Shown here piece after piece: positions 2,678 through 39,964 of a stretch of DNA of 39,964 nucleotides. The position numbers were made by a program, and so were the translations under genes. The stretch lies in sequence record MT350293.1. One strand, 5' to 3'. Within the stretch, counting starts at the first letter, position 1. Each line of letters begins with the position of its first letter. The notes under the pieces are model-generated. The model made no database searches. It saw only the letters and a list, made by a program, of their open reading frames with translations, and was not told the origin of the DNA. The DNA is from Enterococcus phage EFA-2.

Positions 2678-3121
2678 TTACTTGATTTCCTGCTTACGTT
2701 GTAGTTCACGAATAGTATCCTGTAACGCACGAATCCACGCGTCACCTTTCTGGGTCACTGCGATAATACGTTTAGCATCTCGGTCGTCAAGTTCGGCTCG
2801 ACCATCAGGCTCGAATCCACACTGACCATCGGAGGTTCCGGTAGTTTTGATTCTGACGCGCAACCGCTTATTGTCGCTACGCAAATCAGAAATAATCCTA
2901 TCAGTGCTCCATTCCAGCGCGGCAAGGTCTTCTTGATACTTAGCCGATATTTCATTGATTGCTCTTTGAGTGCTCGCTGTAGCCTCAACTCTCTTAACGT
3001 ACTCATTCTGTACCTCCTGTTTCCACTTGGCGTCCATTGAGTCTGCCCCAAGTTGCCATCCCCATCCGAATAGCATCCCAGCGAGAACCCAAGGGACCAG
3101 CTTACGTAACAATTCCAGCAT
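2678..3121 (-). CDS. 18.5: Rz-like i-spanin (147 aa)
   Basis: N-terminal TM segment (LVPWVLAGMLFGWGW); matches T7 gp18.5. Confidence 0.9.
   Translation of the reverse strand: MLELLRKLVPWVLAGMLFGWGWQLGADSMDAKWKQEVQNEYVKRVEATASTQRAINEISAKYQEDLAALEWSTDRIISDLRSDNKRLRVRIKTTGTSDGQCGFEPDGRAELDDRDAKRIIAVTQKGDAWIRALQDTIRELQRKQEIK
2755..2955 (-). CDS. 18.7: Rz1-like o-spanin lipoprotein embedded in 18.5 (66 aa)
   Basis: +1-frame ORF inside 18.5; start taken at the internal Met MKYRLSIKK; lipobox LICVATISGC; matches T7 gp18.7. The ORF track shows a longer upstream extension. Confidence 0.75.
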   Translation of the reverse strand: MKYRLSIKKTLPRWNGALIGLFLICVATISGCASESKLPEPPMVSVDSSLMVEPNLTTEMLNVLSQ

Positions 3122-33551: not shown

Positions 33552-33603
33552 ACCGGAAGAAGGTCAATCATAAAGGCCACTCGTTTAAGTGACCTTGAGT
33601 TTG
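33552..33603 (-). promoter_or_regulatory. RNase III hairpin R1.1-like
   Basis: rc GGGACAAACTCAAGGTCACTTAAACGAGTGGCCTTTATGATTGACC. Confidence 0.55.
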
Positions 33604-33634: not shown

Positions 33635-36286
33635 TTACGCGAACGCGAAGTCTGACTTAAGGATGTCTTGGAGGTTCAAGTTACCTTTAGTCGGAAGTGC
33701 TGGCATTTTGTCCAATTGAGACTCATGCAATTGGTCAGCGAACTGGTCGTAGAAGTCAGCCAGTACATCACAAGACTCATAGGTGTCAACCATAGTTTCG
33801 CGCACAGCTTTGAACAGGTTGGCAGCGTCAGCCGGAATGGTCCCGAAGGAGTCGTGAATCAGTGCAAACGATTCGATTCCGTACTTCTCGTGCGCCCACA
33901 CCACAGTCTTGCGCAGGTGGCTACCATCTTGGCTGTGTACAAAGTTAGGAGCGATACCGGACTCCTGTTTGTGTGCGTCAATCTCGCTGTCCTTGTTTGT
34001 GTTAATGGTCGGCTGTAGACGGAACTGACCGAGGAATATCAGGTTCAAGCGAGCCTGGATAGGCTTCTTGTATTCCTGCCACACAGGGAAGCCATCAGGA
34101 GTTACCCAATGCACAGCGCAGCGCTTGCGAAGAATCTCTCCAGTCTTCTTATCTTTCACCTCAGCGGCCAGAAGTTTAGCGGCAGATTTAAGCCAGTTCA
34201 TTGCCTCAACCGCAGCCACCACGGTCACACTCACAGCTTCCCAAATCAGCTTAGCCATGTACCCAGCAGCCTGATTCGGTTGAGTAAACATCAGACCCTT
34301 GCCGGAATCGATAGCTGGCTGAATGGTATCTTCCAGCACTTGTTGACGGAAGCCGAACTCTTTGGACCCGTAAGCCAGCGTCATGACTGAACGCTTAGTC
34401 ACGCTTCGAGTGACACCATAAGCCAACCATTGACCAGCCAGAGCCTTAGTGCCCAGCTTGACTTTCTCAGAGATTTCTCCAGTGTTCTCATCGGTCACGG
34501 TAACTACTTCGTTGTCGGTCCCGTTGATTACATCCTCTTGCAGAATCACGTTGACTTTCTTAGCGACAATCCCGTAGATGTCCTGAACGGTTTCACTAGG
34601 CAGCAGGTTAACAGCAAGACCGCCCACCTCATCGCGGAGCATCGCGGAGAAGTGTTGAATACCGGAGCAAGACCCATCGAACGCCAGAGGCAGCGAGCAG
34701 TTGTAGCTCAGACCGTGGTGCTGTACCCCAGCGTACTCAAAGCAGAACGCGAGGAAGCAGAATGGAGAATCTTGCTCAGCCCACCAAGTGTTCTCCAGAG
34801 GAGATTTAGCGCAAGCCATGATATTCTCGTGGTTGTCCTCAATGAACTTGATGCGCTCAGGGAACGGAACCTTATCGACTCCCGCGCAGTTAGCACCGTG
34901 GATTTTCAGCCAGTAGTAACCTTCCTTGCCGATTGGTTTACCTTTAGCCAGTGTCAGCAGCCCCTTGGTCATGTCGTTACCTTGCGGGTTGAACATTGAC
35001 ACAGCGTAAACACGTCCGCGCCAGTCCATGTTGTAAGGGAACCAGATGGCCTTATGGTTAGCGAACTTGTTGGCTTGCTCCAGCATGAACTCAAGGCTGA
35101 TACGGCGAGACTTGCGTGCCTTGTCTTTGCGGTACACAGCGGCAGCAGCACGTTTCCACGCGGTGAGTGCCTCAGGATTCGTGTCGATGTCTTCCGGTTT
35201 CATCGGGAGTTCTTCACGTTCAGTCGCTGGGATGTCCTCTACAGGGCAGTGCTTCCACTTGGTGATTACGTTGGCGACCGCTAGGACTTTCTTGTTGATT
35301 TTCCATGCGGTGTTTTGCGCAATGTTAATCGCTTTGTATACCTCAGGCATGTAAACATCTTCGTAGCGCAGCAGTGCTTTCTTGCTGTGAGTGCGTACCA
35401 GCGCCAGAGGACGGCGACCGTTAGCCCAATAGCCACCACCAGTAATACCAGTCCACGGCTTAGGAGGGACTACGCAAGGCTGGAACATTGGGGAAATACC
35501 AGCTAGTGCTCCAGCGCGAGTGGCGATGGCCTCAGCGTATTCAGGCGCGAGTTCGATAGTCTCAGAGTCTTGCCCTACTACGCCAGCGTTTTGACGATGT
35601 AAGCTAACCATTCCGGTTGACTCAATGAGCATCTCAATGCAGCGCACCCCAACGTGAATCGAGTCTTCCTTATGCCATGAAGACCACGCCTCGCCTCCCA
35701 TTAGACCCTTAGAGAGCATGTCAGCCTCGACAACCTGCATGAATGCTTTCTTGTAGACGTGCCCTACGCGCTTGTTGAGTTGTTCCTCAACGTTTTTCTT
35801 GAAGTGCTTGGCCTCAAGGTCACGGATGCGACCGAAGCGGGCCTCATCCTCAATGGCTCGACCGATTGCGCTTGCTACAGCCTGAACGGTTGTATTGTCC
35901 GCACTGGTTAGGCAAGCCAGAGTGGTCTTGATAGTGATGTACGCTATAGCTTCCGGCTTGATTTCTTGCAGGAACTGGAAGGCTGTCGGGCGTTTGCCTC
36001 GCTTAGCTTTCACTTCCTCAAACCAGTCGTTGATGCGTGCAATCATCTTAGGTAGCAGGGTAGTAATGAGAGGCTTAGCGGCAGCGTTATCCGCAACCTC
36101 ACCAGCTTTAAGTTGACGCTCAAACATCTTGCGGAAGCGTGCTTCACCCATCTCGTAAGACTCGTGCTCAAGGGCCAACTGTTCGCGAGCTAAACGCTCA
36201 CCGTAATGGTCAGCCAGAGTGTTGAACGGAATAGCAGCCAGTTCGATGTCAGAGAAGTCGTTCTTAGCGATGTTAATCGTGTTCAT
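33635..36286 (-). CDS. 1: T7-type single-subunit DNA-dependent RNA polymerase (883 aa)
   Basis: MNTINIAKNDFSDIELAAIPFNTLADHYGERLAREQLALEHESYEMGEARF...FAFA; matches T7 RNAP. Confidence 0.97.
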   Translation of the reverse strand: MNTINIAKNDFSDIELAAIPFNTLADHYGERLAREQLALEHESYEMGEARFRKMFERQLKAGEVADNAAAKPLITTLLPKMIARINDWFEEVKAKRGKRPTAFQFLQEIKPEAIAYITIKTTLACLTSADNTTVQAVASAIGRAIEDEARFGRIRDLEAKHFKKNVEEQLNKRVGHVYKKAFMQVVEADMLSKGLMGGEAWSSWHKEDSIHVGVRCIEMLIESTGMVSLHRQNAGVVGQDSETIELAPEYAEAIATRAGALAGISPMFQPCVVPPKPWTGITGGGYWANGRRPLALVRTHSKKALLRYEDVYMPEVYKAINIAQNTAWKINKKVLAVANVITKWKHCPVEDIPATEREELPMKPEDIDTNPEALTAWKRAAAAVYRKDKARKSRRISLEFMLEQANKFANHKAIWFPYNMDWRGRVYAVSMFNPQGNDMTKGLLTLAKGKPIGKEGYYWLKIHGANCAGVDKVPFPERIKFIEDNHENIMACAKSPLENTWWAEQDSPFCFLAFCFEYAGVQHHGLSYNCSLPLAFDGSCSGIQHFSAMLRDEVGGLAVNLLPSETVQDIYGIVAKKVNVILQEDVINGTDNEVVTVTDENTGEISEKVKLGTKALAGQWLAYGVTRSVTKRSVMTLAYGSKEFGFRQQVLEDTIQPAIDSGKGLMFTQPNQAAGYMAKLIWEAVSVTVVAAVEAMNWLKSAAKLLAAEVKDKKTGEILRKRCAVHWVTPDGFPVWQEYKKPIQARLNLIFLGQFRLQPTINTNKDSEIDAHKQESGIAPNFVHSQDGSHLRKTVVWAHEKYGIESFALIHDSFGTIPADAANLFKAVRETMVDTYESCDVLADFYDQFADQLHESQLDKMPALPTKGNLNLQDILKSDFAFA

Positions 36287-36360: not shown

Positions 36361-37440
36361 TCAGCCCATTAGCATTGCGTCAAGTTTCTTGTCTATATTC
36401 AGCGGCAGACCATTAACGATAGCCAGCCTGTCAGCGTTGCGCCAGTTTATCGCAACTCGTTCCTCAAGTGCCTTAAAGTCGCCAGAGAACATGTTAACCC
36501 AGAGCATAGCGTTATTGGTCTTTCCAAGTACATCTACAGCCACCTCATGGTTACGTCGTTCTTGCCGTTCAGCCCAGCGCCACGCGGCAAGCATTCTCTC
36601 GTGCTTAGCTTTGTGTGCTTTACGTGCCTTACGGTTACGGCGCTTTACTTTGCGTGCCTCCAATCGGCCAACGTGACGTGCTTTACGTGCCTTAGCGCGG
36701 TCAATTGCTCTCTGGTGTGCGGCTTCCTCAACTTCCTTGATGAGTTCCTCAGGGTCAATACTGAATGCGCCACCGTCTTTCTTCTGCGAGAATGACACAG
36801 GGTCGGTAATATACGGTACGCCTCCATTTGAGAACATGATGTTCCCGCTGTGCATATCGAACGAAGCGATTCCCTCAAAGAACTTGCGGATTAACTTGCA
36901 AGTCTCGACGAACTCGCCCTCCCATCCAGTTAATGTATCGTGCTCATCTGAGTTGTAGTCAATGATATCACTTGCAATCTCAGCGTACTTATAGTGAGCA
37001 TCATTATTGAAACGCTCGCAATCATTCAGTGCATCAAGTACCACCGTATAGCACCCAGCGTGACGCTGTACATCGTAGACGTTAGGGATACCAGCGCGAC
37101 CCTGATACATGCGGCAGAATGCGGTATACGCAGCGCCTGAGTCCTCTTTCTTAAAGCCTACTTTAATCACTCTGTTGGGTAGCAATGGGTGACTGTAAGC
37201 AGCGGAGAAGTGACCATTACCGAGCATCTTAAACCCTGCATCAGTCGTGAGACACTTCAAGGTAGTCCACCAATCTTGATGTTCAAGTGCCTGATTCAGT
37301 TCGGTCAACTCTCCATCGCTTGTCTCGCTGTTGACCATCTCGACCAGTAAATCAATGAGCATACCTTGTCGCTTATCAAGTTCACAGATTGGCAGTGCTT
37401 TGATTGCGTCGATAGCGTTCATGATGTCGATAGCGTTCAC
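36361..37440 (-). CDS. 0.7: Ser/Thr protein kinase / host transcription shutoff (359 aa, probable GTG start)
   Basis: Matches T7 gp0.7. The start is placed at GTG ([14 protein letters not shown]...), giving a T7-length product. The ORF-track 378-aa version overlaps gene 0.6. An ATG 6 codons downstream is an alternative start. Confidence 0.8.
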
Positions 37441-37459
37441 TTTGTGTATTCTCCAAAAG

Positions 37460-37597
37460 TTAGATGTTGTTGAGCTTGCGATTGGTGCGCAGTTCACGCT
37501 TAAGGCGTTCGATTCGCTGTTTCATTGCGAAGCCATCAGGCGTGCATACAGTTGCCCCGTTGGGCGTGTGGATAGGCATAACGTAGTGTTTCAGCAT
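37460..37597 (-). CDS. 0.6: gp0.6-like (45 aa)
   Basis: Manual translation [45 protein letters not shown]; matches the T7 gp0.6A N-terminal part. Confidence 0.6.
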
Positions 37598-37725
37598 TTG
37601 CGTATTACTCCTGTGATGATGCAAGCCACAAAGTAAGAGCCTACAGCTACACCCAAAGCCTTCCCAAAGGATGTACCTACAGCTAGACCCAGAGCGGTGA
37701 GCAGACCGATAGTAAGCATATACAT
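37591..37725 (-). CDS. 0.5: gp0.5-like small membrane protein (44 aa)
   Basis: Manual translation [44 protein letters not shown]; matches T7 gp0.5. The start may be the second ATG (37719). Confidence 0.6.
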   Translation of the reverse strand: MYMLTIGLLTALGLAVGTSFGKALGVAVGSYFVACIITGVIRKC

Positions 37726-37740
37726 TACTCCCTCGTAAGT

Positions 37741-37795
37741 AAAGTGATAATCATGAAGGCCACTCGCGAGGAGCGACCTTGAGTTTATCGCTAGT
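37741..37795 (-). promoter_or_regulatory. RNase III hairpin, R0.5-type repeat copy A
   Basis: aaagtgataatcatgaaggccactcgcgaggagcgaccttgagtttatcgctag; ~85% identical to copies B and C. Confidence 0.5.
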
Positions 37796-38075
37796 ATTGC
37801 AAATCTTTAAGCGCAACCTTGAGTATTGTTTCGATATGTGCATCAGTCACGTCAGTTAGATACCCACCTATTAGCGTAACTGTGTTATGCTCAGAGATTA
37901 TTCTGGTAGTCTCTTTAAAGCCTACTGCGTGGTAACAGTCCCACATAAATCTACGGAATGTTAGGCCTTTCTCCTTATAAGCCCGTGCAACATCAGCAAG
38001 TCCTCCCGCGTTATGTGCAGCTTTGGATTCTATTGCTGACCGTAGTGCTACCGCTGTATCTTTGCTTAAGCGCAT
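37791..38075 (-). CDS. Hypothetical early protein (94 aa), no T7 counterpart recognised
   Basis: ORF MRLSKDTAVALRSAIESKAAHNAGG... with GAAGGAAG RBS. It lies in the class I region between genes 0.4 and 0.5 and is preceded by an RNase III hairpin. Confidence 0.6.
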   Translation of the reverse strand: MRLSKDTAVALRSAIESKAAHNAGGLADVARAYKEKGLTFRRFMWDCYHAVGFKETTRIISEHNTVTLIGGYLTDVTDAHIETILKVALKDLQY

Positions 38076-38094
38076 TGTGTGCTTCCTTCATAAG

Positions 38095-38160
38095 GTAAAG
38101 TGATAATCATAAAGGCCACTCCTATTGAGCGACCTTGAGCCTATCACTTGGTAGACTTGA
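38095..38160 (-). promoter_or_regulatory. RNase III hairpin, R0.5-type repeat copy B
   Basis: aaagtgataatcataaaggccactcctattgagcgaccttgagcctatcacttgg. Confidence 0.5.
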
Positions 38161-38169
38161 AGCCTGTTG

Positions 38170-38370
38170 TCAATCGTTCCAACCTGCACATGTTGCTTGG
38201 TGTATCACACAGGCTTGATACTCCTCTTGCGCTAAAATCGGGTTTACCCAATGCGTGACCTGTTTGCCGTAGCGTACAACATAGGTGCATCCCATTGACC
38301 CGTGATAGTACTCACGCAGCGTTACAGTGCATTGGCCTTTGATTTTAGAGGTTGCCAGAAGTTTACTCAT
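38170..38370 (-). CDS. Hypothetical early protein (66 aa, 5 Cys), no T7 counterpart recognised
   Basis: Start chosen at MSKLLATSKIKGQCTVTLREYYHGSMGC... (AGGA RBS). The longer ORF-track start reads through the RNase III hairpin. Confidence 0.5.
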   Translation of the reverse strand: MSKLLATSKIKGQCTVTLREYYHGSMGCTYVVRYGKQVTHWVNPILAQEEYQACVIHQATCAGWND

Positions 38371-38390
38371 AGTGTTAGTCCTATTGCATG

Positions 38391-38445
38391 TTAAAGTGAT
38401 AATCATAAAGGCCACTCGCTAGGAGCGACCTTGAGTCTATCACTT
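38391..38445 (-). promoter_or_regulatory. RNase III hairpin, R0.5-type repeat copy C (closest to T7 R0.5)
   Basis: aaagtgataatcataaaggccactcgctaggagcgaccttgagtctatcactt. Confidence 0.55.
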
Positions 38446-38592
38446 ACTATTACCGTACATCGCCTTACGTGCTCGATATGTCTGTGCTAATTGTGCCATA
38501 CAGTACCCGAAAGAGGCACCATAAGCCATAGCCACGCGGTACGTTTGGAGCATTTCTCTTGTTAGACCATATTGCACGTTGTTAGTAGCCAT
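38440..38592 (-). CDS. 0.4: gp0.4-like (FtsZ-inhibitor family), 50 aa
   Basis: Manual translation [50 protein letters not shown]. The N-terminus matches T7 gp0.4 (MSTTNVQYGLTAQ...); the ATG overlaps the 0.3 TAA. Confidence 0.55.
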   Translation of the reverse strand: MATNNVQYGLTREMLQTYRVAMAYGASFGYCMAQLAQTYRARKAMYGNSK

Positions 38593-38954
38593 TACTCTTC
38601 GCCCTCTTCGTAGTCTTCCTCTTCCTCGACTTCCTCAAGGTACTCGTTCAGTAAGTCCTCAGCGTCTTCCCAGAGGTCAATCGTGAGTTGCTCATAGATA
38701 CGCGCTTGCAGGATACGGATTACGTCCTTGGTGTCCGGCATAAGGCCAGAGTCTTCGAACTCAAGGTCAATGCCCTCGCTTGCCATTACGCTGAAAACGT
38801 CACTGTAATAGTGCGGAACGGCGTTATCGGCAGCCATATGAACAGCATCATGCAGGTCATCAGTGTCGCGGATGTCATCATAACGGATGTTTTCTTTCAG
38901 CATTTCGCAAGCGTGGTCGAAAACGTTGTTGTAAGTCATGTTAGACATAGCCAT
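38592..38954 (-). CDS. 0.3: Ocr, DNA-mimic anti-restriction protein (120 aa, very acidic)
   Basis: [36 protein letters not shown]... matches T7 Ocr. Confidence 0.95.
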
Positions 38955-38974: not shown

Positions 38975-39035
38975 TGTTAGTGAATATCATAAAGGGCACC
39001 TTGCGATACCCTTGAGTTATCCGCTAGTCATGCAC
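38975..39035 (-). promoter_or_regulatory. RNase III hairpin R0.3-like upstream of ocr
   Basis: gaatatcataaagggcaccttgcgatacccttgagttatccgctagtcatgcact. Confidence 0.5.
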
Positions 39036-39138
39036 TCAAGAGCTATTTACCAGATTGTTAAAGAGCATGTCGGTCAGGTTTCGTTAGACCCTAGCGCGTT
39101 TCAGTGTTGCGCCTCACTGTTCCGTCATTTCGTGGTAC

Positions 39139-39167
39139 ATCGTACCGTGTTTACTTCATGCTGTCAA
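39139..39167 (-). promoter_or_regulatory. E. coli sigma70 early promoter A3-like
   Basis: rc TTGACA -17 nt- TACGAT. Confidence 0.6.
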
Positions 39168-39243
39168 CCGTTTTGTTTCACCTTATGTGCCGTGGTGCGC
39201 TTAAGTCACCTAGAAGACACCTTGTGTCCGGTTGACGCTGTGT

Positions 39244-39400: not shown

Positions 39401-39450
39401 TACTCTTTTAAATTATTTTGATTAATCTCTTTTAAGGCCTCTTTAAGTAG

Positions 39451-39473
39451 TCTCCTTATAGTGAGTTGTATTA
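39451..39473 (-). promoter_or_regulatory. T7 RNAP promoter phiOL (A at -11, +1 A)
   Basis: rc = TAATACAACTCACTATAAGGAGA, as at the T7 left-end origin promoter. Confidence 0.75.
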
Positions 39474-39475
39474 AA

Positions 39476-39672
39476 GAGACAATGATTAAAGGGTGTCTCT
39501 TTATAGGTAACAACAAGGCGTCTTTAGGTATGGTCTTTAGGTATGGTCTTTAGGCTTATCTTTAAGATAGGGATTGACTGAATGGGCCTTTAAGGGTAGT
39601 CTTTAGGTTGTAGACGGTAGGAATTACTTTAGGAGGTGACTTTAGGAGGATACTTTAGGAGGCTGAACAGAT
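39476..39672. repeat. Left-end array of ctttagg (CCTAAAG) heptamer-containing repeats adjoining the terminal repeat
   Basis: ctttagg occurs more than 10 times in ~200 bp (continues into window 1-108). This is the equivalent of the T7 left-end repeats needed for concatemer processing/packaging. Confidence 0.55.
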
Positions 39673-39822
39673 AGGGACACAGAGAGACACTCAAGGTAAA
39701 CCCAAAGGGTCAACCACCAACCCTTAGGGAACCCTCAAGGTCAACCTTCGGTTGGCTTTAGGTGATTGGCTGGGCTTTAGGGACCCCTATGGGGGGGAAC
39801 TTTGGGTTCTTAAACTGTGAGA
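39673..39822. repeat. T7-type direct terminal repeat (copy 2)
   Basis: Identical to 110-259. Confidence 0.5.
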
Positions 39823-39964
39823 TAGTCACTCAGATTTTTATGGTATATTTTAAAGGACCCTCTAGGGACTCCTCAGGCCCTCTCTAGGACCCTCTTTAGG
39901 TAACACCAATAGGATGGCCTATCTTTAGGTATAGACCTTACGGATAGACCATTAGAGGCTCTTT

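Follow-up and report, generated by a model that had tools for sequence, protein, structure and literature searches.

The window analysed here is the whole 39,964-nucleotide (nt) sequence of Enterococcus phage EFA-2 (MT350293.1), and our subject is a small part of its early region, between homologues of the T7 genes 0.4 and 0.5, where two short open reading frames (ORFs) are each preceded by an RNA hairpin. The frames, which we call ORF66 (38170-38370, 66 amino acids (aa)) and ORF94 (37791-38075, 94 aa), lie on the (-) strand, as do all the genes near them. Three hairpins, H1 (38392-38444), H2 (38096-38148) and H3 (37740-37792), also read on the (-) strand, stand in front of ORF66, ORF94 and gene 0.5, respectively. 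Followed 5' to 3' along the transcript, the order is ocr, 0.4, H1, ORF66, H2, ORF94, H3, 0.5, 0.6, 0.7 and RNA polymerase. The original prediction for this locus had drawn both ORFs with the same coordinates and position between genes 0.4 and 0.5, and these boundaries are correct.

The three hairpins belong to one family. A repeat search returned them as direct repeats of 53 nt that are 83-92% identical and spaced by 356 and 296 nt, and a degenerate hairpin pattern gave exactly three matches, which are H1-H3, against 0.00 expected from 100 shuffles. The three copies reported earlier are thereby confirmed, with the extents given for the outer two (37741-37795 and 38391-38445) fitting the repeats and that of the middle one (38095-38160) running over by about 12 nt. 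The fold on the transcribed strand is of one kind in all three copies: a lower stem is followed by an asymmetric internal loop, an upper stem of 10 base pairs and a 5-nt loop (AAUAG in H2), with folding z-scores of -2.0, -3.7 and -4.4. The stop codon of gene 0.4 lies inside the lower stem of H1, and that of ORF94 (TAG) inside the lower stem of H3.

H1 is 100% identical over 53 nt to positions 1429-1481 of T7, the single hairpin between its genes 0.4 and 0.5, which we take to be the RNase III site R0.5 mapped by Dunn and Studier (1983). Since the T7 records that we examined carry no annotation of RNase III sites, the status of R0.5 as a mapped site rests on established knowledge. The internal-loop and proximal sequence ACUCAAGG ... 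CCUUUAUGAU is common to the EFA-2 hairpins and R0.5; H2 and H3 keep all the internal-loop bases, save for one U-to-C change in H3, and the 3' flank of H3, ACTTACGAGGGAGTAATGTATATG, matches the leader of T7 gene 0.5. The identity of H1 and the shared fold bear out the earlier assignment of all three copies to the R0.5 type. Among 38 distinct hairpin variants from related phages, compensatory double changes occur at 10 of the 16 base pairs and the internal-loop bases are invariant, which together are the signature of a selected RNA structure. By every testable criterion, H1-H3 are, as far as sequence can tell, early RNase III signals of the T7 type, at which cleavage is predicted. Taking the register of T7 R0.5 from established knowledge, we infer cuts on the (-) strand at 38405/38404 in H1 (CCUUUAU^GAUU), 38109/38108 in H2 and 37753/37752 in H3.

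A sceptical view of the locus would treat the ORFs as chance open frames and would see in the repeats not RNase III sites but terminators, or signals for replication or packaging. Small ORFs are indeed common by chance, with many in the ORF list of this window, and the region lies near the left genome end. The stems of H1-H3, however, are not followed by a U-tract, and a terminator scan left the hairpins and the rest of the coding (-) strand without a site, both of its matches being on the + strand at 39131-39238; the identity of H1 with the T7 0.4/0.5 hairpin likewise argues for an RNase III site. As for the frames themselves, the median ratio of non-synonymous to synonymous substitution rates (dN/dS, Nei-Gojobori) over the sequences that were retrieved is 0.07 for ORF66 (17 unique sequences) and 0.12 for ORF94 (9 unique sequences). 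Between EFA-2 and Salmonella phage 3A_8767, ORF66 shows 16 synonymous and 0 non-synonymous differences. Homologues are full-length in 156 phage records for ORF66 and in 61 for ORF94, the latter annotated as hypothetical protein. The low dN/dS values and the full-length conservation across genera indicate that both ORFs are genuine genes under strong purifying selection. With these data the chance-frame explanation is effectively refuted, and we give the sceptical view as a whole almost no credence.

Both genes belong to families that can be named. ORF66 matches phrog_6500 over residues 1-66 (E = 7e-44) and shares 95.5% identity with the gp0.45 protein of Salmonella phage phiSG-JL2, in whose record a 'putative RNaseIII site R0.45' is marked just 5' of gene 0.45. 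Its neighbourhood at 90% identity also takes in the 'putative 0.45 protein' of phiYeO3-12. Judged by homology, ORF66 and its hairpin are the already annotated 0.45/R0.45 pair. In those T3-like phages the gene likewise has an RNase III-type hairpin in front of it (annotated in phiSG-JL2), but it follows a SAM (S-adenosylmethionine) hydrolase gene in Teetrevirus, whereas ORF66 follows gene 0.4 in Teseptimavirus and is itself followed by a second cassette. Our literature searches on gp0.45, R0.45, recombination at RNase III sites and phiYeO3-12 found nothing informative.

The start of ORF66 deserves a comment. An ATG lies inside the conserved CCUUUAUGAU of the hairpin (38404-38406 on the (-) strand, with equivalents in H2 and H3), the H1 copy is in frame with ORF66, and several database records begin the gene there, giving forms of 75-90 aa. 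We rejected these longer forms, since conservation does not reach into the extension and their start codon would be split by the predicted cut (UAU^G). The Shine-Dalgarno sequence of the 66-aa form is AGGA, 8 nt before its ATG; in both ORFs it is purine-rich and lies 7-9 nt before the ATG, and the leader moves with the gene.

ORF94 (QJT70358.1) matches phrog_9817 over residues 1-94 (E = 2e-39) and is all-helical. Its family is small: an exhaustive hidden Markov model search of 1.84 billion representatives gave only 13 clusters at 50% identity, nearly all of about 90-105 aa, three of which are long proteins with partial or repeated matches. The ten small proteins of these clusters contain no Pfam domain, apart from two sub-threshold partial matches (a SAM-lyase tail on a chimera, and Tox-HDC). 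The ORF94 model found no fold match in the PDB, and a BFVD search with it returned its own family alone.

Scans of both proteins against Pfam, NCBIfam and PADLOC gave no match (for ORF66, none in Pfam at E <= 1), PDB sequence-profile searches gave only chance-level matches (E >= 0.15), and tblastn against the T7 genome left both ORFs unmatched (best E = 0.54 and 1.0), so that the lack of a T7 counterpart claimed by the original prediction holds. Its description of the genes as unknown holds only in part: homology and fold searches assigned no function and turned up no homologue of known function, but the families themselves, gene 0.45/phrog_6500 and phrog_9817, are known, and Escherichia phage EG1 has both.

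Transcription of the locus appears to start well upstream. Three strong sigma-70 promoters, equivalent to A1, A2 and A3 of T7, lie between 39139 and 39400 on the (-) strand and would drive the whole early transcript; the promoter scan places them at 39400-39372 (TTGACT/TACTAT), 39273-39244 (TTGACA/TAAGAT) and 39167-39139 (TTGACA/TACGAT). The same scan of 37400-38950 found no promoter-like site. ORF66 and ORF94 are thus co-transcribed, in the sense that an internal promoter was not found. Because the sigma-70 promoters lie upstream, none lies inside and the T7 homologues follow in order, the stretch is identified as class I early operon sequence from a T7-like phage.

The arrangement of hairpin, ORF and hairpin was found in other T7-like genomes as well, in several forms. 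We mapped hairpins and early genes in all retrieved loci, writing R for a hairpin of the R0.5 or a related type. T7 has R-ocr-0.4-R-0.5, with one R0.5-type copy in the 0.4-0.5 interval, whereas EFA-2, together with the Logan contig L086, has three copies with two genes between them (0.4-R-ORF66-R-ORF94-R-0.5). Phages 3A_8767, C2, ESh3 and others have ORF66 as the single cassette (0.4-R-ORF66-R-0.5), and ECA2 has 0.4-R-ORF94-R without ORF66. In EG1, Yersinia phage WW2 and locus L103 the order is 0.4-R-ORF94-R-ORF66. T3-like phages carry SAMase-R-ORF94-small ORF-ORF66, locus L006 has R-ORF94-R-ocr-like, and loci L094 and L099 have R-ORF94-R-SAM lyase-R-ocr. In all, ORF94 occurs in seven gene contexts, and in every one of them a hairpin lies directly 5' of it.

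Close parallels to EFA-2 are EG1 and WW2, which share its gene set (ocr, 0.4, ORF94, ORF66, 0.5, 0.6 and 0.7) and its three hairpins between genes 0.4 and 0.5, but have the cassettes in reversed order, ORF94 then ORF66, and carry a 15-nt remnant of the 3' end of ORF94 (GATTTGTAATACTAG) between ORF66 and the third hairpin (locus L001, 2152-2180, for EG1; locus L088, ~3058-3090, for WW2). The remnant reads as a scar that links the two cassette orders. No record in a collection of 50,697 phage genomes (an INPHARED copy, searched without the EFA-2 record itself) spans at least 80% of the EFA-2 region collinearly.

The junctions between cassettes have a regular make-up. On the 5' side of a hairpin, 12-20 nt (the lower-stem stop codon among them) go with the upstream gene, and on the 3' side the leader goes with the downstream gene; the upper stem and loop vary independently of the two flanks. 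The leader of ORF94 turns up behind five or more upper-stem variants, among them one of the R0.3 type. When 28 early regions were compared all against all (for homology blocks of 120 nt or longer, the pairs not being independent), 41% of the 2070 internal block ends lie within 12 nt of a hairpin, compared with 14% expected from coverage, with right ends falling at the 3' edges of hairpins and left ends at the 5' edges.

We consider it likely that these loci are built from units of hairpin, leader and ORF which are processed by RNase III and exchanged at near-identical hairpins. Host RNA polymerase would produce one long early RNA from the three A-type promoters, and host RNase III would cut it once per hairpin, on the 3' side of the internal loop. 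After each cut the upstream message would end in a protective 3' stem and the downstream message would have a leader and Shine-Dalgarno sequence of its own, which would make every such unit a self-sufficient expression module. The hairpin, being near-identical wherever present, would at the same time act as a portable stretch of homology, and recombination within it or at its edges could add, duplicate, delete and permute modules among Studiervirinae phages. The two extra units between genes 0.4 and 0.5 would then encode small, basic, non-essential accessory early proteins. The comparative data fit gain, loss and permutation at the hairpins, in line with the earlier suggestion that the cassettes were acquired by recombination at RNase III sites.

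Several observations weigh against this reading. Rfam holds no family for these hairpin sites, and in T3-like phages ORF66 follows the small ORF with no hairpin in between. There are three different types of 3' junction for ORF66, and the 15-nt scar in EG1 and WW2 means that not every junction is hairpin-mediated. The enrichment of block ends is supportive, not decisive, as the pairs are not independent and intergenic space is mostly hairpin; selection for intact genes would also put breakpoints at hairpins for this latter reason. The scar, the variety of ORF66 junctions and the partly forced enrichment also favour an alternative in which the hairpins serve expression only, genes move by illegitimate recombination, and selection keeps those junctions that restore a working hairpin, the hairpin itself not being the substrate. 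Two chimeric ORFs from metagenomic data point the same way: in P0037 the N-terminal 25 residues of ORF94 are fused to a full ORF66, and in P0052 its N-terminal 66 residues are fused to the C-terminal 35 of a SAM lyase. Both are likely deletion products between neighbouring cassettes, or else assembly chimeras.

Expression alone, however, would not explain why the hairpins are near-identical in sequence, and not only in structure, within and across genomes (83-100%), when more distant genera hold the same fold through compensatory changes. Nor does it sit well with homology blocks that cross an entire hairpin and end at its far edge, or with a single gene leader found behind at least five hairpin variants. 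We therefore regard the expression-only alternative as unlikely, though it keeps real weight, and favour homologous recombination at the hairpins, rather than selection on junctions, as the probable cause of the breakpoints.

What the two proteins do is a separate matter. Both are basic, with isoelectric points (pI) of 8.79 and 8.41, and they are therefore not DNA mimics like Ocr; a mimic of the Ocr/ArdA type was rejected for both on this ground and also because there was no PF08684 match and no such fold match. We lean slightly towards host-directed early functions, either host takeover or anti-defence, for ORF66 and ORF94, in view of their neighbours (Ocr, gp0.4, gp0.6 and gp0.7), their apparent dispensability and the position of ORF94 as the first gene in some phages. 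The original prediction had put them forward as candidate anti-restriction or host-shutoff factors. Against such a role, the homology and fold searches described above tied neither protein to a host target, a defence system or a known anti-defence family. Silas et al. screened 200 accessory genes, and six peptide fragments of the two proteins were also absent from their supplementary files.

The main alternative to a host-directed role is that the proteins serve the phage's own programme, for example with ORF66 as a DNA- or RNA-binding regulator of early expression or of replication; we think this improbable. The AlphaFold2 model of ORF66 has four strands and a C-terminal helix (predicted local distance difference test score, pLDDT, 80) and weakly resembles the sheet-plus-helix fold of the AP2/integrase type. 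Profile comparison with hhalign against the AP2 domain of AtERF1 and the N-terminal domain of lambda Int gave probabilities of only 1.7% and 0.1%, and since the fold is also a simple one, we did not assign ORF66 to the AP2/integrase-type DNA-binding domains. A candidate zinc site in ORF66 was dropped, as Cys28 is Ser in most homologues.

For ORF94 a more ambitious idea can be put forward, tentatively, since on balance we would not expect it to hold: it may represent a novel type of protein in the first line of anti-defence or host takeover, alongside RNase III hairpins that double as the recombination linkers of a cassette pool shared by Studiervirinae. The grounds for naming ORF94 here are its lack of a fold match and its place in some phages as the gene that enters and is expressed before all others, SAM lyase and Ocr among them. 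In locus L099 three sigma-70-like promoter matches are followed by ORF94 as the first gene. The metagenomic T7-like loci L094 (881-2141) and L099 (1501-2769) also carry SAM lyase and Ocr genes in tandem, each with its own hairpin and with ORF94 ahead of both.

Among the closest known systems is the class I operon of T7 with its sites R0.3, R0.5, R1, R1.1 and R1.3. The EFA-2 locus resembles it in hairpin architecture, in the sequence of H1, which is that of R0.5, and in the intergenic position of the hairpins on the sense strand; as in EFA-2, the early sites of T7 contain the stop codon of the upstream gene within the lower stem and are directly followed on the 3' side by a leader with a Shine-Dalgarno sequence. 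As a recombination linker, the closest concept is the promoter-early stem-loop (PeSL) of T4-type phages, a conserved motif repeated between small non-essential ORFs of unknown function and made up of a sigma-70 promoter and a terminator stem-loop (Arbiol et al. 2010, PMC2839356). In both systems the repeated motif marks the limits of what is inserted, deleted or replaced between related phages. The EFA-2 hairpin is nevertheless not a PeSL, since it lacks the defining promoter and terminator and would act instead as an RNA-processing signal inside one transcript. If the interpretation given above is true, RNase III hairpins acting as recombination linkers would be the T7-group counterpart of the T4 PeSLs. 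Extra copies may also come at a price, since in Vibrio cholerae the Lamassu (DdmABC) system is triggered by the palindromes of T7 RNase III sites in their DNA form (PMC11707656), and additional hairpins may thus cost the phage in some hosts.

The novelty of the locus is limited, in that its genes and layout are already present in public records as hypothetical proteins. What is new, from the comparison of sequences, is a previously unrecorded permutation of the cassettes and a clearer picture of hairpin-linked shuffling. The early region of the T7 group has already yielded Ocr, SAM lyase, gp0.4, gp0.6 and gp0.7, and two conserved and widespread proteins encoded there are reasonable candidates for new host-directed functions. 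The locus also suggests an easy way to spot accessory early genes in T7-like genomes, namely to take any ORF that follows an R0.5-type hairpin, and the hairpin-linked cassettes suggest how early genes pass between phages; neither point would surprise a T7 specialist.

The genes around the cassettes, all on the (-) strand, are homologues of T7 genes. Upstream in the transcript, an R0.3-type RNase III hairpin (38975-39030), found in the hairpin scan, folds as a hairpin, aligns almost base for base with T7 R0.3 and precedes gene 0.3 (38592-38954), which encodes the 120-aa DNA mimic Ocr (PF08684, E = 2e-62; phrog_2568). The gene 0.4 homologue follows (38440-38592, 50 aa; phrog_5058, with PF26807 found on a near-identical Logan contig). 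Its protein is 98% identical to the counterpart in Salmonella phage 3A_8767 but only about 40% identical to T7 gp0.4, which suggests that the early region is mosaic at the level of single genes. On the other side of the cassettes lie gene 0.5 (37591-37725, 44 aa, hydrophobic; phrog_16572, E = 1e-28), gene 0.6 (37460-37597, 45 aa; phrog_8393) and the gene 0.7 protein kinase (36361-37440, taken from the ORF list), whose product is 92% identical to T7 gp0.7; on contig L086 these three genes match PF26813, PF26851 and PF27024, respectively. The RNA polymerase gene (33635-36286) comes next, and its product is 98% identical to T7 RNA polymerase.

At the level of the whole genome, EFA-2 is assigned to Teseptimavirus (NCBI), and the genomes nearest to it in the phage collection show about 93% identity across some 91% of the query. 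This assignment, the T7-like RNA polymerase and the Escherichia coli-type A1-A3 promoters make Enterococcus look doubtful as the host. A further hairpin, similar to R1.1, lies at about 33567-33599 on the (-) strand, after the RNA polymerase gene and between two T7-type promoters (CGACTCACTATAG), and T7 is arranged alike. The left genome end (39430-39964) contains many short direct repeats with units of the CTTTAGG type (families D3, D4, D16 and D17), which resemble the arrays adjoining the terminal repeat of T7.

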